Source: Leptolyngbyaceae cyanobacterium (GTDB lineage: Bacteria; Cyanobacteriota; Cyanobacteriia; Phormidesmidales; Phormidesmidaceae). From it: a DNA stretch of 64,000 bases. Of this stretch, positions 50,703-63,265 are shown piece after piece. The stretch's first letter is position 1. Each line of letters starts with the position of its first letter. The position numbers were made by a program, and so were the translations under genes. The stretch spans positions 64,001 to 128,000 of the forward strand of contig CBDHHL010000046.1 in the NCBI GenBank assembly GCA_965263355.1. The letters are read 5' to 3'. The notes below the pieces were generated by a model, which was not told where the DNA came from, made no database searches, and saw only the letters and a list, made by a program, of their open reading frames with translations.

Positions 50703-51113
50703 TCACAAGTCATCTTTTAGCCTTTTTTTAAGTGCTCTCGGGCCTAACTCTTTCAAGCTCGCCAACTCTCTCTGTGCTTGCCTTAGCGCTCTAGTTTTAC
50801 GCGCATTTTGCAACGCTGTATAGGCCCCATAGCCACCACCTACTATGGCTCCATGTGTCGGTCCCAGAGCAGCGTTATTGCGATAGGCAATGTCCCCCAA
50901 AGCTTCACCAGACACCGAGCCTAGAAAACCCGAGGCTGCGCCTGAACCTACATCGCGTAATAGCTCTACAGGCGTTCTATCTTCCTCACGAGCCCCATAA
51001 CCTCCCGCCAACGCCCCCAAAATAGTAGCGCTAATAGAGGGTGCATAAGCCTGTTTCTCCAATTGATAAGGAGCCTCCCAAGAGTAAATTAACTCCTTAG
51101 CATTCATAATCAT
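50703..51113 (-). CDS. Glycine-zipper protein (DRT family, paralog)
   Basis: AKELIYSW...EKQA N terminus, GxxxG runs, EDRT.ELLRD and a basic C terminus. Confidence 0.75.
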   Translation of the reverse strand: MIMNAKELIYSWEAPYQLEKQAYAPSISATILGALAGGYGAREEDRTPVELLRDVGSGAASGFLGSVSGEALGDIAYRNNAALGPTHGAIVGGGYGAYTALQNARKTRALRQAQRELASLKELGPRALKKRLKDDL

Positions 51114-51178
51114 GCTCTGATTCTAAACCCCCAACCCCTTACCCAAAACTAGGCAAACACTTTTGGGATAAGTATTAT

Positions 51179-52066
51179 ATGAGCTCAACTCATTCAGAAG
51201 ATATCGAAGTTGATTTTGGCTGGTCGCATTCATTCCTAGGGGTAGTGCTTCCCGGTCTAGTCATCTCTGTAGTCGGTATAATGTTCCTAGAGATGTTATA
51301 CCCAGAGGAGTACAAGCTCCTCAACGCCTATACCTACCGCATCCTGCCTGCGGTAGTCGCGCTGGGAGGCGCGGCTCTAGGGTACATCTTTGCTCTTCTC
51401 ACTGGTCGACTCGCTGCTACTGGCGGGGAAGCCAGAACAACGTTCTGGGTGGTGATGATTACATTATTCATCGCCCAATTCTTGTCCCTCTCTTCCAAAG
51501 AAATGCGGAAGGTGAAAGAAGAGCATCCTTACTACGTAGAGGCCTCTCGAATCCGATCCGAGCGTAACGGAATTCAGGAGGCCTACAACAAAGTAGGGAC
51601 GTCGAAGTCTCGATATGCAAAAGCTCGAGAACAAGACGAAGAACGGCGAAGAACAAACTACGAGAAAGACCTGGCAAGGGTTGAAAGGGACAGAAAGGCA
51701 CTGGAGGCCAAGTACCCTGACGGCCCACCAAAAATCCAACTCGATTCGAATTTCTACTGGGATGTTATAGGGTTGGTAGCCCTAAAAATGGTCTTTACAT
51801 TCCTTGGTGATGCCGCAGGACATTGGCAAGGGACAGGAGACCGACGTCGCGTTCTTCGCAACCGACGTATCGCTGCATTGAAGGAGGAGAACGAAAAGCT
51901 CCTCGCAGTGATTGAGGGGCTACAAAATCAGGCCCAGGACTTGCAGACCTCGGACCAAGACAACACCCCATCAGTAGATACTGAGACACCTCCAGGCAAC
52001 CAATCGCCTTCAACGATTACCAGTGGGCTCGGCCACTTGGTTGCGCACTTGGTTCCCAGAACCTAG
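51179..52066 (+). CDS. Multi-pass membrane protein with coiled coils
   Basis: About 4 TM segments; own promoter motif and terminator. Confidence 0.8.
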   Translation: MSSTHSEDIEVDFGWSHSFLGVVLPGLVISVVGIMFLEMLYPEEYKLLNAYTYRILPAVVALGGAALGYIFALLTGRLAATGGEARTTFWVVMITLFIAQFLSLSSKEMRKVKEEHPYYVEASRIRSERNGIQEAYNKVGTSKSRYAKAREQDEERRRTNYEKDLARVERDRKALEAKYPDGPPKIQLDSNFYWDVIGLVALKMVFTFLGDAAGHWQGTGDRRRVLRNRRIAALKEENEKLLAVIEGLQNQAQDLQTSDQDNTPSVDTETPPGNQSPSTITSGLGHLVAHLVPRT

Positions 52067-52070
52067 CGGG

Positions 52071-52113
52071 GAGGAAGAAAGCAGCTGCAACAGCTTTCTT
52101 CCTCTTTTAGCTA
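52071..52113 (+). terminator. Intrinsic terminator ending TTTTAGCTA
   Basis: GAGGAAGAAAGC/GCTTTCTTCCTC 12-bp stem plus T tract. Confidence 0.75.
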
Positions 52114-52135
52114 GTAATCCGCAGCAACCTAAGGC

Positions 52136-52669
52136 TTAGGAGCTGAGAATAACCCTCTTAGCCAATTCGCGCTCAGTTTCTTGCCTCTTGCGTTTTTCTC
52201 GATCTGCGAGATAGCCAATTCCTAACATCCCATATACAGTTGCAGCGTCTGCAACCCCCTTTTCCACCTTGCCTATCCCAGAACGCATAAGCCTTTTGTA
52301 ATCTCCCGTCCTTGAAACAAAGCCCTTGGCTGGCGCAGCCGGAGGTACTATTTCAGAATATCTTGCTGGGCTAAGGCCAAGTTTCTGCCATATGTTATCC
52401 TTATGTTGGTGAATTTTGTTATATTTTTGTTGTCTTACTGCTCGAGATGACCTCCAAAATTCTCTTTTGCTCCTTAACAGGTTCTCCGCTCGGGAAATGT
52501 CCTCCAAACCATCAACAAGACCTCGGAGGGTAGCTCCGTTTTTGAGCCGTGAATAAAACCTATTGAGGCCGGATAAAGTTCTCTGCCCTCCTTTTAAAAT
52601 TTGACGTTTCATGGACCAGGACGCCTGTTTCTCCCACGAATGAACAAGACTGGCTGCGGATGCTTTCAC
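52136..52669 (-). CDS. Basic protein with AASLVHSWEKQA N-terminal motif
   Basis: 177 aa, Arg/Lys-rich; TAAGCT-N6-GTG upstream. Confidence 0.7.
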   Translation of the reverse strand: MKASAASLVHSWEKQASWSMKRQILKGGQRTLSGLNRFYSRLKNGATLRGLVDGLEDISRAENLLRSKREFWRSSRAVRQQKYNKIHQHKDNIWQKLGLSPARYSEIVPPAAPAKGFVSRTGDYKRLMRSGIGKVEKGVADAATVYGMLGIGYLADREKRKRQETERELAKRVILSS

Positions 52670-52807
52670 AAAATTAGCTTACAAGACACTCAACTGTCAT
52701 AGAACTTAGTGACTTTAAATTGTTGCTTGAACTTCATACCCACAAGATGGAGAGGGCCTTAAAAGGAGTCTGAAAGGACTTTTGTCTAACTCACATACTA
52801 TTGCAGT

Positions 52808-53167
52808 TTAACTATTTCGGACTAACATCTTGAACCCGAATGGAACCGAAATAGTTTCATCCTCGATTAAGCCTGCCAAGATTGATAAATCACTCCCTGT
52901 ATTCACAGTGAGGTTATTGCCAATAAAAACATGAAACCCAATACCCTTTAGGGTAACAGTCCCACTGTCAAAGGTAACTTGAGGTGGCACTTCATTGGAG
53001 TTTGGGGCCCCAGTCAATAATGCCTTAGCTTCCGCAGTTATAACTACGTCAGCAGCATTAACTTGAACAGCATTGTCCACTGGAGGCTCATTCAAGATGT
53101 TTGGTGAGGTCATATCAGACACTGCTCCGACAGCACCTCTGTAAGCGAAAATCTTTACAACAGCCAT
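52808..53167 (-). CDS. Probable virion protein (beta-rich)
   Basis: 119 aa, Val/Gly/Asn-rich. Confidence 0.6.
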   Translation of the reverse strand: MAVVKIFAYRGAVGAVSDMTSPNILNEPPVDNAVQVNAADVVITAEAKALLTGAPNSNEVPPQVTFDSGTVTLKGIGFHVFIGNNLTVNTGSDLSILAGLIEDETISVPFGFKMLVRNS

Positions 53168-53446
53168 TTCGAGAATTATGTTACATGATTGTTGTGGACA
53201 ACAAAGAACTTAAATCATTTTCTAAAATTCGCTTTTCAAGGTTCTTGATCTTTCGGTAATTGGAGAAGAGATAGCGGAGCAACTTCTCGATAGTATATAT
53301 GGGCACTCCTTTATCTATTGCACTAAAACGCAACGCGCAGAGGGCTGGTCGCCACAAATTGGACCAGTCCGTGATCAGAACTCAAAGTGACAAGGTCGTA
53401 GTCCCACTCTCCAAGAATGCGATAGTTTAGATATCATCAAATATCA

Positions 53447-54073
53447 TTAAGCTTTTTTCTTCCTATCCCTTTTCTTTAGTGCTTTGTTATATTCCCTTTT
53501 CTTCTTGTTGTAGTGATGGGCATAGATACCAGAACTCAAGGCTGCTATGGTGTCATTTTCCAGGTAGTGCTGCCCCAACGTACTGTTTATCCTAGAAATG
53601 ACTTCTTCGGGTTTTGTGATTTTGATGCTATCGTAAATAGCAGCTTGTCTTCGAGCAAATAAATACATTTCATATGTTTCGGAGGATACTTCCGAGCCTT
53701 GTTCCCACAATTTTTCAACAGCTTCTATAAAGGCTTTGTTCCGATTAACTTTATCCAGGTTATTGAAAGCTTTTTCAAAGCCAGCTTGCGCTAGGGGATG
53801 CATTTTTTTCTGGAAATACCGTCCAGATCCAGACAAGGCAGAACCGATAACAAGACCCGCGCCGGCACCTTGCAAAGCCCTGCTAGTACGATCTTCTCCT
53901 TCTGCAGTTGCATATCCAGTAAGACCCCCAGCAACGGGGCCCACAATTGCTGGGGTGACATACCGAGGAAGTGCCATTCGTGTTAAAAAACTCTTAGGTC
54001 TTGAAATTTGAGTCAGAGCCTTACTGGGACCTCTAGACCACCAGGAAGGAATTCCTGCTTGTTTGCGTTTCAC
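53447..54073 (-). CDS. Glycine-zipper protein (DRT family, paralog)
   Basis: MKRKQA start, AGGLTGY...EDRT...GAGAG and a Lys-rich C terminus. Confidence 0.7.
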   Translation of the reverse strand: MKRKQAGIPSWWSRGPSKALTQISRPKSFLTRMALPRYVTPAIVGPVAGGLTGYATAEGEDRTSRALQGAGAGLVIGSALSGSGRYFQKKMHPLAQAGFEKAFNNLDKVNRNKAFIEAVEKLWEQGSEVSSETYEMYLFARRQAAIYDSIKITKPEEVISRINSTLGQHYLENDTIAALSSGIYAHHYNKKKREYNKALKKRDRKKKA

Positions 54074-54893: not shown

Positions 54894-55044
54894 GTTGAGA
54901 CTTAGATTGTTGGCGACGATTAAGTTGTGCCTGAACTTGATGCTCACGCTCTCCCGTTGAGCTACCACCCCATAAAGAGGAGTGGGCGGGATTTGAACCC
55001 ACACACTGAGCCTAAAACACAACGATTGATCCAACAAACTCAAC
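54894..55044 (-). ncRNA. Circularly permuted tRNA-like (Y-RNA/YrlA-like) module A on a long stem
   Basis: Core 55011-54942: GCTCA-GTGT-GTGGG TTCAAAT CCCGC-CCACTCC TCTTTAT GGGGTGG-TA-GCTC AACGGGA GAGC-G-TGAGC; three further closing helices. Confidence 0.85.
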
Positions 55045-55047
55045 AAT

Positions 55048-55189
55048 GCTAAATTTCTGAGGAATAAATTAAGATTAACATCCCTGCGTCTACCAATTCC
55101 GCCACCCTTTTTCTGTCATAAAAGGGACAGGACTCGAACCTGCATGTCCATGGGACTAGGATGATATCAATCTAAAACTGAATTTTAGC
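55048..55189 (-). ncRNA. Circularly permuted tRNA-like module B (Leu-type D loop and variable arm) on a long stem
   Basis: Core 55163-55079: CATCC-TA-GTCC CAT GGAC-AT-GCAGG TTCGAGT CCTGT-CCCTTTT ATGACAGA AAAAGGG-TG-GCGGAATTGGTAGACGC-AG-GGATG. Confidence 0.85.
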
Positions 55190-55193
55190 TTGC

Positions 55194-55218
55194 CTCAGTG
55201 AACGACTCGTTCACTGAG
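55194..55218. other. Perfect hairpin CTCAGTGAACGA-C-TCGTTCACTGAG
   Basis: Lies between the stop codon at 55242 and module B. Confidence 0.7.
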
Positions 55219-55241
55219 ATAGTTCTAACCAAAAAATGAAA

Positions 55242-56003: not shown

Positions 56004-56375
56004 GTGCAAAGTTTGTTTGTTTTGTCCCTATTCCTTCATCTCTCTGTCACGCTATTCGCTGAATATGTGCCACGCATGAGTGAACAGTATAGTGCTATCG
56101 CACGATTTTTAGATTTATCCGAAGAGGCAGTGAAATGCCTTCACGAGTGGATTTCACTCGTTGAATCTGCTCAAGAAAATACGGAAATCGCTGAGGGGAC
56201 TCTTTTGACAAAAGAAGAGGACCCAAAAGTTTTGAGGGAGCTCGAAGGAAAAGGGTACCTTACCGAAGAAGCACAAGGGTTCAAGCTAAACGAGCCATTT
56301 TTGAGAAACCGCTTAATTGCGATCAATATTTTTGCGAATCAACACCTTAGGTCTGAAGACGAAGTTCCGTCATAA
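56004..56375 (+). CDS. Possible winged-helix protein (start probably ATG 56076)
   Basis: KVLRELEGKGYLTEEAQGFKLNE wHTH-like end. Confidence 0.55.
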   Translation: MQSLFVLSLFLHLSVTLFAEYVPRMSEQYSAIARFLDLSEEAVKCLHEWISLVESAQENTEIAEGTLLTKEEDPKVLRELEGKGYLTEEAQGFKLNEPFLRNRLIAINIFANQHLRSEDEVPS

Positions 56376-56673
56376 TCTTCTTGATTGTCTCACAATAAGT
56401 CTGTAAAGTAGATCTTTGCCATTCTTCTAATTCGACTGAGTCCTCTATTTTCGACATCAACATAAAGATTATATGAAATAGTTCCCTATCTGGGATTTTA
56501 TCCTTTGCCGGTTGTTGGCCATCTACACTGCACCAAGCCACGTTTAAGCCACCGTTTGGCTCTCGGAGTATGGAAGCTAACAAAAGTGCATCACAACCTC
56601 CCAAGCCTTCTGCTTCAAGCTCTTCTTTTGAAAAATCGCCTTGTTCTATATTGTACCTGATGGAGTAATTCAT
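56347..56673 (-). CDS. Hypothetical protein
   Basis: 108-aa ORF with TAAGG upstream. Confidence 0.65.
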   Translation of the reverse strand: MNYSIRYNIEQGDFSKEELEAEGLGGCDALLLASILREPNGGLNVAWCSVDGQQPAKDKIPDRELFHIIFMLMSKIEDSVELEEWQRSTLQTYCETIKKIMTELRLQT

Positions 56674-56753
56674 CTCGTACCTTACTCAACACAATTGTAT
56701 TTTAGAGGCTAGCATTGGCTACGACGATATGGCATAAAAGCCAAGACGGGTCT

Positions 56754-57079
56754 GAAAGCGGTGTTCGAGCTTGGATCTTCACTTTGGGGTGCATGTTGAT
56801 TAGCTATGTTAGACGGACACTCTAACATAGCCTCTTAGGCCTTTAGCTCAATTGGATAGAGCAACCGAGGACTTTTCGGTAGGTTCGGGGTTCGAATCCT
56901 TGAGGGCCTGAGGGAGGAGATGACAATAAATTTTCTCCCCCGTAGCGAACAACTTTTGAACAAAGTTATGCCTGCATTGTCATCTCCTCTCGTTAATCTT
57001 GAAATTAGCCCGAACTTATTGGGGTAAGAATTAGGTGAACAAAATCACAAGCGCACTCGCGCACATCGAACACGCTTTC
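56754..57079 (+). ncRNA. Putative ~330-nt nested structured RNA enclosing a tRNA-like domain
   Basis: Outer helix GAAAGCGGTGTTCGA/TCGAACACGCTTTC; inner GCTTG/CAAGC, TTCACT/GGTGAA and GATTAG/TTAATC; hairpins 56803-56831 and 56912-56991. Confidence 0.7.
56837..56910 (+). tRNA. tRNA-like element with Arg-type body and non-canonical anticodon loop (GGACTTT), no CCA
   Basis: AGGCCTT-TA-GCTC AATTGGATA GAGC-A-ACCGA GGACTTT TCGGT-AGGTT-CGGGG TTCGAAT CCTTG-AGGGCCT-G; lacks U33 and purine 37. Confidence 0.8.
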
Positions 57080-57113
57080 CTAAGTCTCGGCCCAATCGAG
57101 GAAGCAGTATAGA

Positions 57114-57157
57114 GAGGGGGATGGGTAGTATAAAAGCTATTCATCTCTTTTAGCTAA
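57114..57157 (+). terminator. Hairpin with ATAAAA loop ending TTTTAGCTA
   Basis: GATGGGTAGT ATAAAA GCTATTCATC stem-loop plus T tract. Confidence 0.65.
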
Positions 57158-57530
57158 TAGATAAACTGGCTTCTGTCATGGTGTTGCGCCCAAAAGAACT
57201 TTCGAGCATATTTTTTAGCCTAGAAATTTCGTCAAGAAGTTCACAGGTATCCCTCGATTTGAAAGTATTGATTTCAGACTCAGCCATCTTCCTGAACTTG
57301 CCATTAGAAACTAGCGTTCCCCAGGATGTTGTGGAAGAGCCTTCAAACTCCCAAACTGCCCAAGTAAAGTTCTCTCGGTCGCAATGATTCCAACGAGATA
57401 ATATCGCGGAGGTCAGTCGGAGAAGGTCATGTCGCTCTATGACTTGGTTGTGGCTAAGAATCTTAACATTCTCGAGTTTGGCTTCTGCCTCTGGTAAAAG
57501 TAGTAGAAATATTTGGAACTTGATTTTCAT
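57150..57530 (-). CDS. Hypothetical protein
   Basis: 126 aa with ATGA overlap to the upstream gene. Confidence 0.6.
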   Translation of the reverse strand: MKIKFQIFLLLLPEAEAKLENVKILSHNQVIERHDLLRLTSAILSRWNHCDRENFTWAVWEFEGSSTTSWGTLVSNGKFRKMAESEINTFKSRDTCELLDEISRLKNMLESSFGRNTMTEASLSIS

Positions 57531-61371: not shown

Positions 61372-62163
61372 ATGAGAAAACCAAAAATCCACGAACTCAA
61401 AATTCCCACTCATGACATACAAGCTCTTTGGAGAGGGACAAAGAAATCGGAAATCCGGATCAATGATCGAGATTTTCAACCCAACGACTATATCCTATTT
61501 CGGGAGTGGTGCGATGAGGACTTAAAGTTCTTAAAAGGAACAATATCCACACAAATCACTTACATCCTAGACCGAGATATAGGCCTCGCAGAAGGCTACG
61601 TTATGCTTTGTTTAGTAAAGATAGCTGACGACCTTCCTATCTTATCAGATGTAGCTCGAGCCACGCGTATATTCGCCTATAAAAGTGACGACACTGTGGT
61701 GGAATTTGAAAAATTTGGTCGAGTGGATACCTTTGAAAAACTCCAAGTCACACACGCAAAGTGTCAGGTGATACCAAATTACGGAGAATTTTTAGCAGTG
61801 TACGGCCCTGAAGGGCGTCTCACACCCTATCAAATGAATGTTAGAACATCCCGTTTAGATACAGAAGACGGAGAGTTCTTTTCATTTTGTGGGCATCAAG
61901 TATCTGACTTCGATCCACGTGTGGAGCCACTGTTAGATCAGGTTAAGAACTTGCTGATGGATGAACTGCATAGCCTCACTTGGTCTATGAGGACCAAGCC
62001 AGAAGTCTGGAAAATCTTCAAAAAGGCGAAACGCGACGAAGACCCAGAACCTCACATTCAACAACTCTATGCTTTGGGGCTACAAGTAACCCCAGAAACA
62101 TTCTCTTACACCCATAATCTCCTCCACAGCCAAGAGATCCCACAACCTTTAATTAGGGATTAG
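61372..62163 (+). CDS. ASCH/DUF3850-like domain protein with C-terminal extension
   Basis: Start reassigned to ATG 61372; HELKI...GTKKSEIRINDRDFQPNDY..FREW...ITYI...GYVML. Confidence 0.75.
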   Translation: MRKPKIHELKIPTHDIQALWRGTKKSEIRINDRDFQPNDYILFREWCDEDLKFLKGTISTQITYILDRDIGLAEGYVMLCLVKIADDLPILSDVARATRIFAYKSDDTVVEFEKFGRVDTFEKLQVTHAKCQVIPNYGEFLAVYGPEGRLTPYQMNVRTSRLDTEDGEFFSFCGHQVSDFDPRVEPLLDQVKNLLMDELHSLTWSMRTKPEVWKIFKKAKRDEDPEPHIQQLYALGLQVTPETFSYTHNLLHSQEIPQPLIRD

Positions 62164-62542
62164 ATGTGGGAGATTCCGCTCTTCGCTTTCTTCGCTCACG
62201 AGCAGCCCTAGCAGCCTTTCCAGCCCCGGCCACCCCGCTAACAATAGCCATTCCTTGAGCTCCTGAATGACCAGCAATCCCTATTTGCCTATCAAGTGCG
62301 TTGTGGCCCACAGACATACCCAAAACAGAGCTACCAGCCCCATACAAGGCTCCATCGGATATATCTTGGACAAGTTCTGCATACGTTCTATCCTTGCTGT
62401 AACCACCCATACCGCCCGCCATACCTCCACCAAGTGCTGAAGCGTTAAAGGTTGTTGTCCACGGATGATATTTGGCCATGTTGACTAAATTTTTAGCCTT
62501 GGCTTTAGCCCATGCCCGTACCAAATCTGCTGCTGATTTCAC
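62153..62542 (-). CDS. Glycine-zipper protein (DRT family, paralog)
   Basis: Start reassigned to GTG 62542 (MKSAADLVRAW) after TACCTT-N6; aligns by eye with 50703-51113. Confidence 0.7.
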   Translation of the reverse strand: MKSAADLVRAWAKAKAKNLVNMAKYHPWTTTFNASALGGGMAGGMGGYSKDRTYAELVQDISDGALYGAGSSVLGMSVGHNALDRQIGIAGHSGAQGMAIVSGVAGAGKAARAARERRKRRAESPTSNP

Positions 62543-62620
62543 CGCAATAAGGTAACATGAGACTAACCTTGTCGCTAAATAGCCCCACAATCGACACGTA
62601 AAGATGCTAAATATGGCTAG

Positions 62621-63265
62621 GTGACCTATCAACAGAAACAAACCACAAGAAACAATTTCAAAATCGGAGTATTGGTAGACCAATATCAGTACTACTCCTT
62701 CAACTCTATCTGGTCTAAAGACAAAATAATCGACTTTTTTGTCAGAGACCTCCCACCAGGCTGTATCGTGGAAGATCTTGTTGAGGCTAGCCTCAACGTC
62801 TATTGTCAATTTTATAGCCTCAACTGTGTCATCAAAGAGGTTCATACTACTTTCAATAAAGAAACAGGTGAGATTGACTACAGAGTCAAGGCTCTCGTCC
62901 CAGAAAACGCACCCCGGATAACCTCCGAGATCTACGCTAGACTAGAAGCATGGAAACCGAACATTCAAGGCTTGCAATGGGACAAGGCATTCCAAGTTTA
63001 CAAAGTGGTTTGGTTTGTAGCGCCAGACACAGGTTTTCTCAGCAAGACTACGGTAGTTTGTGTCTCTGCAAGCTCTAAGGAAAGAGCCATTAAACTGGCT
63101 CAAGGAAGCGTATCCGAGGACCAGGAACCGCACAGAGTGAGTCTATGTCCCTGCTCAGAGGAACAAGGACTAGAAAAGGTCTTGAGTAAAAGCTATACAA
63201 GCCACACAGAGAACAAACTAAATGACAAAGAATGGCTAAATACCGAATTTGGGCAAGAGATATAA
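62621..63265 (+). CDS. Hypothetical protein
   Basis: 214-aa ORF. Confidence 0.65.
   Translation: MTYQQKQTTRNNFKIGVLVDQYQYYSFNSIWSKDKIIDFFVRDLPPGCIVEDLVEASLNVYCQFYSLNCVIKEVHTTFNKETGEIDYRVKALVPENAPRITSEIYARLEAWKPNIQGLQWDKAFQVYKVVWFVAPDTGFLSKTTVVCVSASSKERAIKLAQGSVSEDQEPHRVSLCPCSEEQGLEKVLSKSYTSHTENKLNDKEWLNTEFGQEI

Follow-up and report, generated by a model that had tools for sequence, protein, structure and literature searches.

A probable tRNA mimic with arginine identity elements in a predicted clamped fold of a large uncultured phage

Genomic setting of the locus

The window analysed here (the whole stretch of DNA, 64,000 nt) is part of a large uncultured phage that encodes a sigma factor, a RecA-like protein, an amidase, Fis-type regulators and long structural genes, and its proteins were located on a 162.5-kb contig. 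The RNA locus occupies a 476-nt intergenic gap between two minus-strand ORFs, where the longest ATG-started frame has 39 codons. Contigs from two runs of one sample cover the whole stretch with no differences, which makes an assembly error unlikely, with the qualification that these contigs may be the window's own source and that contigs drop rare variants. Evolutionarily, an alignment of sigma-factor relatives provided 42 viral loci, and the nearest relative found was a complete 192-kb record (G001; sigma factor 44%), in which 12 of 37 window ORFs are matched at 26–44% identity with their order kept. Closer relatives are indicated by the proteins P0002, P0004 and P0005, which belong to contigs of 49–167 kb and match window proteins at 69–78% identity. 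A search with one 1055-aa protein returned no cultured relative of the phage. For the gene neighbouring the RNA at 56350–56673, one protein relative was found and no viral-contig locus, and the best relative in cellular genomes of the nearby DUF7873 gene (65% identical) came from a Myxococcota-type MAG, a weak hint at the host. Elsewhere in the window, small minus-strand ORFs at 50706–54073 and 62156–62845 are alike in their glycine-rich, membrane-like segments and in a short N-terminal motif of EKQA/KQAG type, and probably form a paralogous phage family.

A putative stand-alone transcription unit

The plus-strand motif GGCATAA (56731–56737) directly precedes the 5′ arm of the outer helix, or clamp, described below, and is a candidate promoter motif, so far undescribed, of this phage family, an identical 11-base stretch standing upstream of a homologue in G001. 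Across 10 sequences (nine related records plus the window), it was intergenic in 35 of 91 occurrences, compared to a mean of 13% for permuted motifs, with 0 of 119 permutations as high; this count includes the two sites that suggested the motif. GGCATAA(G) is found in the window at 56731, 60262 and, on the minus strand, 26011, and in the related records G001–G014; it also stands just before the sigma-factor gene. A phage-family promoter motif immediately before the outer helix points to a stand-alone RNA gene of about 350–400 nt, in which transcription would start at about 56740–56750, and, given the intergenic bias of the motif, the clamp would join the first and last 30–50 nt of the transcript. 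Downstream, where the initial annotation had placed a terminator, a 16-bp hairpin (57114–57151, assigned to neither strand; −19.7 kcal/mol) is indeed present, but a consensus scan gave no plus-strand terminator call for it, and it also lies directly behind the stop of the convergent ORF 57150–57530; it is probably a terminator for the RNA, the convergent ORF, or both. With regard to antisense targets, no match longer than 13 nt was found between the RNA and the remainder of the window.

A tRNA body that breaks the decoding rules

The tRNA body itself (56837–56910, plus strand, tRNA positions 1–73) scores 48.4 bits against the Rfam tRNA model RF00005 (gathering threshold 29), forms a cloverleaf with the conserved D- and T-loop bases, and matches no Rfam class beyond tRNA. 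The initial annotation had described this cloverleaf, its Arg-like D arm with A20, its lack of an encoded CCA and its failure to fit any known RNA class, and all of these points were borne out; the CCA may be added by the host. By position, the body carries A1-U72, G2-C71, A20 and G73, with a T stem of C49-G65, G50.U64 and G51.U63, and in the predicted fold its acceptor stem can be extended by 2–5 bp into the flanks.

The anticodon loop (56868–56874, plus strand) reads GGACTTT. The loop rules that face the ribosome are a pyrimidine at 32, U at 33 and a purine at 37, and the G32, G33 and U37 found here break all three, the last two as first reported; the predicted fold also reproduces the reported zipping of this loop to 3 nt. 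It shares only C35 and U36 with the loop of tRNA-Arg(UCU), its other five bases being different. Outside the loop, positions 8–48 are those of a crAss-like phage tRNA-Arg(UCU) except for one compensatory 29:41 pair, whereas the acceptor stem and T arm are closer to tRNA-Ile2 or tRNA-Trp. Compared with canonical phage tRNA-Arg(UCU) (for example that of crAss-like phage cr115_1, L516), the body shares the D arm, anticodon stem, variable loop, A20, C35 and U36, and differs at loop positions 32–34 and 37–38, in the acceptor stem and in the T stem, being a non-decoder by the usual rules. In a comparison set that is biased by the T-arm search pattern, its best scores, out of 57, were 48 for CAU, 47 for Trp and 46 for Arg(UCU). 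The body appears to derive from tRNA-Arg(UCU), perhaps with a mixed ancestry. An origin from tRNA-Ile2 with compensatory changes was dropped, since the comparison set had been selected by T-arm pattern and Trp and Arg(UCU) fit equally.

Bacterial arginine identity, as listed in Table 1 of PMC9976931, comprises A/G73, G2-C71, C3-G70, A20, C35 and U/G36, and the same source gives A20 as the main determinant for E. coli ArgRS. The window body holds five of these six elements (A20, C35, U36, G73 and G2-C71); C3-G70 is absent from it (pair 3:70 is G-C), as it is from the G001 homologue. All four major elements (A20, C35, U/G36 and A/G73) are present, a combination seen in 3 of 72 other phage bodies with a purine at 32 and no U33, and the two loop bases kept out of seven are the two that ArgRS reads (chance 1 in 21, calculated post hoc). 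Other phage tRNA bodies lacking U33 (L192, L216 and L226) carry A20, C35, G36 and A73, and may be independent Arg-identity mimics.

Three T-stem pairs (49–51) set EF-Tu affinity, and by the scores in Table 2 of PMC3239215 those of the window body sum to a predicted +2.2 kcal/mol of a possible +2.5. In the loci compared, 3 of 501 scorable tRNA genes are as weak, and none of the 37 Arg genes is. The double wobble G50.U64/G51.U63, common to the window and the G001 homologue, occurs in 0 of the 545 called tRNA genes of those loci. In the secondary-structure ensemble, from a model that leaves out tertiary contacts and modifications, the canonical T arm has a probability of 0.004. On the basis of its bases and pairs, the body is predicted to separate the functions of a tRNA, keeping shape and synthetase identity and losing decoding and EF-Tu binding. 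As a side observation, at 56882–56898 in the window and in the T arm of L307 the model favours pairing the variable loop with the T loop, an arrangement that joint changes at positions 49 and 57 preserve; canonical tRNAs with the same motif can pair likewise, and two cases constitute no evidence.

The fold around the body

Structurally, the region 56740–57170 folds with a z-score of −5.44 (0 of 100 shuffles as good), and the flanks without the tRNA reach −8.7, a value as strong in 2 of 77 control tRNA loci by a rough estimate of 10 shuffles each. The fold is closed by the clamp, whose 5′ arm (56740–56768, plus strand) comprises a 3+4-bp extension followed by a 14-bp helix with one bulged G (pair probabilities 0.92–0.99), and whose 3′ arm (57066–57091, plus strand) is defined by the predicted fold and by chance tests. 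Its core is the outermost of the enclosing helices of the initial annotation (56754–56768/57066–57079; 14 Watson-Crick pairs, one bulge, p about 0.9), which can be extended by 56740–56747/57084–57091. Fourteen Watson-Crick pairs arose in 2 of 500 and 1 of 500 shuffles and in 1 of 657 plus-strand window tiles (the helix itself), whereas its duplex energy was matched in 22 of 300 and 8 of 120 shuffles (p about 0.07) and in 24 of 7944 window segments. On a coarse grid, which misses the helix's best register, 27 of 77 control tRNA loci also equalled it. These tests were picked after the helix had been seen; it is rare by pair count and modest evidence by energy.

Within the clamp, the two reported flanking hairpins are present. 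Hairpin A (56803–56831, plus strand) has 11 perfect base pairs and a 7-nt loop (p 1.0), and hairpin B (56912–56991, plus strand) has a 16-bp basal stem, a large internal loop and upper stems of 4 and 6 bp (p 0.92–0.93); a hairpin C of 3+5 bp (57005–57027, plus strand; p 0.92), absent from the initial annotation, is added to these. The three inner long-range helices that were said to enclose the body can be drawn, but at 37 °C their probabilities are 0.002, 0.001/0.000 and 0.07, and a model made to contain them lies 6.6 kcal/mol above the minimum. These helices are thus unsupported by the model, which treats poorly the tight four-way junction that the innermost would form. The 5′ linker (56769–56802, plus strand), where they were placed (p 0.00–0.07 in the ensemble), instead forms a local hairpin in the ensemble, and its fold is uncertain. 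Taken as a whole, the predicted fold around the body looks real, but it is seen in one phage only.

Two minor features of the flanks may be recorded here. The loop of hairpin A (56814–56820) can pair with the clamp 5′ arm (56761–56767) at −7.6 kcal/mol, against −8.1 kcal/mol for the 3′ arm, possibly as a folding intermediate, a switch, or by chance. A 35-codon frame (56920–57027) starts inside hairpin B, with a G/A-rich ribosome-site-like motif that almost abuts the start codon.

A homologue in a related phage and searches for further relatives

A DNA search of 40 records yielded one clear homologue, in G001. Like the window copy, it lies about 1 kb from a DUF7873 gene, follows the same 11-base promoter stretch, after a 7-nt leader, and has a T stem with G50.U64 and G51.U63. 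Its anticodon loop, of 12 nt, is likewise non-canonical and non-decoding, with U34-C35-U36 when counted from the 5′ side of the stem, and at acceptor positions 6:67 and 7:66 both bases have changed between the two phages, with pairing kept. It lacks A20 and ends in an encoded ACCA, and by identity alone is no closer to the window body than the best canonical tRNAs. The G001 body is followed by three hairpins before an ORF (z-score of the whole −3.9), with neither an enclosing shell nor a 5′ extension, and these hairpins do not align with the window flank (402 of 500 shuffles scored as well). The flanks are therefore not conserved between the two phages compared, and two bodies and one shell yield no covariation. 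We suggest that the conserved unit is the promoter plus the non-decoding tRNA body, as judged from two examples, the shell being without a known relative. The earlier idea of a tRNA built into a larger RNA holds insofar as promoter motif, clamp and hairpin suggest transcription within a longer folded RNA, but the homologue without a shell argues against the nested RNA as a conserved unit.

Wider searches added no further case. Flank homologues were found neither in about 1.3 Mb of related phage records nor in the other comparison loci (nhmmer), the 40 records, or the phage and plasmid collections. The odd-loop pattern had 0 matches in viral contigs, the 112 matches to the outer-arm 15-mer were all chance, and the pattern of a purine at 32 without U33 matched at least 119 stretches, none with related flanks among the matches listed. 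A T-arm pattern recovered the CCTTG stem in 1 of 67 viral-contig matches (the G001 copy itself), a metagenome scan gave one relevant match in five (the same sequence as G001), and an acceptor plus D-arm pattern gave one relevant match in 11, nothing new. None of seven matches in 401 genomes of the phylum of G041 was tRNA-like, nine other related phage records (two in part) held no further homologue, and a pattern search of the 40 records, many of them incomplete, found G001 only and no copy in the other 39, two other matches being one non-tRNA stretch (L506).

Comparison with known systems

Among known systems, the nearest precedent by analogy is tRNAOther of Bacillus cereus, described by Rogers et al. 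2012 (PMC3399842) as a pseudo-tRNA without a role in translation, which has a promoter of its own and forms part of a longer RNA that runs to a terminator. The likeness lies in that layout, the extent of the transcript being suggested here by the motif and the hairpin; tRNAOther, in contrast, stands at a chromosomal island border, reaches up to about 1.1 kb and is proposed to be a regulatory RNA, with no sequence relation expected, whereas the RNA described here belongs to a phage, carries Arg identity bases and is tightly folded with its ends clamped. GOLLD, according to 10.1101/2024.12.08.627333 and PMC12990946, spans 700–830 nt with helices P1–P27, a conserved 3′ domain and a tRNA in a single-stranded linker; it too is a phage-associated structured RNA near tRNA islands that sometimes holds a tRNA, whereas the present RNA is about 350 nt long, with a non-decoding tRNA stacked between hairpins. 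Membership in GOLLD was rejected, as there was no Rfam match at gathering or at E 10 and the 476-nt gap is too short for it. In YrlA, as characterized by Chen et al. 2014 (PMC4201824), the T arm precedes the D arm, the acceptor hairpin is closed, a GNCGAAN(0-1)G motif is present and a Ro60 gene lies nearby; it resembles this RNA as a non-decoding tRNA-like domain on an RNA with paired ends. YrlA (RF02553) was rejected given the normal arm order here and a score of 15.3 bits versus 69; no TROVE/Ro60 gene was found among the 63 window ORFs or in five related records.

A retron msr-msd was discarded, with no reverse transcriptase among the 63 window ORFs and PF00078 in 0 of 5 related records, as was a tmRNA, with no ARAGORN or Rfam tmRNA call, a G-C rather than G3.U70 pair at 3:70, and an internal body. 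For the T stem, a parallel is the Staphylococcus non-proteinogenic tRNA-Gly, whose poor EF-Tu-binding T stem accompanies extra-translational use in cell-wall crosslinks, as reported in PMC3239215. Both T stems would be tuned away from EF-Tu (by prediction here), but the Staphylococcus tRNA exists as a free mature molecule with a known acceptor pathway, whereas the phage body is Arg-like, has no known partner enzyme, sits in a longer fold and lacks CCA. No phage RNA of this design came up in the literature searched, and PMC5737381, as far as searched, gave no matching motif.

A proposed arginine tRNA mimic acting off the ribosome

We posit, tentatively and as the best explanation at slightly less than even confidence, that the locus is a stand-alone phage RNA gene for a tRNA-Arg(UCU)-derived mimic that serves as an off-ribosome ligand of arginyl-tRNA synthetase. 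A phage sigma factor would transcribe 350–400 nt from the promoter at 56731 to the hairpin at 57114–57151, and the ends of the transcript would pair via the clamp. Host RNase P and 3′ trimming may then free a 74-nt body, cut at A1 and G73, a release suggested by the layout of the homologue; alternatively, the extended acceptor stem could retain the body in the longer RNA. ArgRS would bind the mimic through A20 and C35/U36, and EF-Tu and the ribosome would ignore it, owing to the missing U33 and purine 37, the zipping loop and a predicted very weak EF-Tu binding. The outcome could be a decoy or sink, whether for ArgRS, for some other protein that reads tRNA-Arg, or for a defence enzyme directed against that tRNA; alternatively, an excised body with CCA added could act as a non-ribosomal arginine carrier. 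The 350-nt shell would be packaging particular to this phage, sealing the two ends and probably controlling the mimic's release.

This proposal draws on the pattern of retention and loss: Arg bases kept, with decoding rules and the EF-Tu stem lost, suggest selection for synthetase recognition and against ribosomal use, and a loop that lacks U33 and purine 37 and zips, together with weak EF-Tu binding, suggests action off the ribosome. The layout in G001, with its 7-nt leader, ACCA end and compensated acceptor stem, fits a released mimic. Arginyl transferase (PF04377), MprF-like synthase (PF09924) and ArgRS (PF00750) are absent from all five related records, and the absence of a phage partner enzyme there favours decoy over donor. 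Against the mimic stand a single homologue, which lacks A20, the missing C3-G70 in both bodies, the likeness of acceptor stem and T arm to tRNA-Ile2 or tRNA-Trp, the low ensemble probability of the canonical T arm, the frequency of non-decoding bodies among phages, and counts made post hoc; loss of CCA and pairing of the acceptor stem into the flanks could block its release.

The view of the initial annotation, by which the nested RNA acts at its full length of 350 nt and the tRNA is a fixed, never-released domain, strikes us as unlikely. The promoter motif directly before, and the hairpin directly after, a clamp of 14 Watson-Crick pairs fit it, as do the flank z-score of about −8, the lost CCA, the abutment of hairpin A, extended acceptor stem and hairpin B with 0–2-nt linkers, and the precedents of tRNAs inside GOLLD and of tRNAOther inside a longer RNA in the sources cited above; yet no flank homologue emerged from any of the collections searched, the G001 homologue has no shell, the inner helices are unsupported with the outer one reaching only p about 0.07 by energy, and one shell permits no covariation. 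Rather unlikely, in our judgement, is a decaying tRNA gene from a phage tRNA island whose promoter is still present, with flanks that are ordinary leader, trailer and terminator folding. DUF7873 does often lie in tRNA clusters (at least two annotated tRNAs within 2.5 kb at 5 of 8 cultured phage loci), the RNA is absent from 39 of the 40 records searched (many incomplete), flank z-scores of −4 or below occurred in 12 of 77 control loci, and drift can make non-decoding bodies, those with a purine at 32 and no U33 being common in phages (at least 69 distinct). Decay would, however, have left the four stems and the conserved bases of the D and T loops intact, with compensated pairs, in two phages whose proteins are only 26–44% identical, and would have replaced the loop in both, with changes clustered in the loop and the EF-Tu pairs; the earlier claim that this is not a decaying tRNA is probably right, given stems intact and compensated in both phages.

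Two further explanations treat the body as a substrate or as a decoder. It is highly improbable that its tRNA shape serves solely to guide cleavage by RNase P and RNase Z and so to liberate active flank RNAs: the elbow and 7-bp acceptor stem are kept, the G001 body stands first in a leader whose three hairpins precede an ORF, and RNase P cleaves tRNA-like YrlA with a 7-bp acceptor stem (as reported in PMC4201824), but the flanks are the unconserved part, and the Arg identity bases and weak EF-Tu stem would be left unexplained. Scarcely credible is an unusual working decoder whose anticodon ACU reads the Ser codon AGU and inserts Arg (missense) or Ser. ARAGORN does call the body tRNA-Ser(ACU), the 7-nt loop and 5-bp stem are of normal size, and the missing CCA is not decisive, the tRNA genes of the related record G011 also lacking it; against this stand G32, G33 and U37, the zipping loop, a near-weakest EF-Tu stem, and the 12-nt loop of the G001 homologue. 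tRNA-Ser has a long variable arm, and the body has none.

Returning to the mimic of tRNA-Arg, what the locus carries is a genuine tRNA mimic, probably under selection, whose surrounding fold also looks real but lacks replication in a second phage. The stronger proposition is doubtful: that this is a new RNA class, in which a mimic recognised by ArgRS but kept off the ribosome forms a fixed part of a clamped 350-nt fold and, in the course of infection, either captures or diverts the host's synthetase or protects host tRNA-Arg against a defence enzyme that attacks tRNAs. Phage tRNA genes whose anticodon loops are broken are generally classed as pseudogenes. If this one is charged or bound by ArgRS, phages keep tRNAs for off-ribosome use, and working mimics could be told from decaying genes by a simple rule on the sequence: identity bases retained, no U33 and a weak T stem.

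The DUF7873 neighbourhood

Non-decoding bodies lie near DUF7873 at four loci (the window, G001, L001 and L512), an association that may only reflect the location of DUF7873 in tRNA islands; our literature search found no paper naming DUF7873. In two unrelated phages (L001, 5834–5993, and L512, about 2390–2470), tRNA bodies with enlarged non-canonical anticodon loops stand directly upstream of it. Directly behind the DUF7873 gene of the window, two tandem circularly permuted tRNA-like units (54920–55220, minus strand) each run from T arm through closed acceptor hairpin to D arm, with a weak YrlA score (26.3 bits) and no Rfam family at gathering. Units laid out in the same permuted way stand behind DUF7873 at 11 of 13 other loci, drawn from viral contigs and from cellular genomes, and in all eight cultured phages examined.
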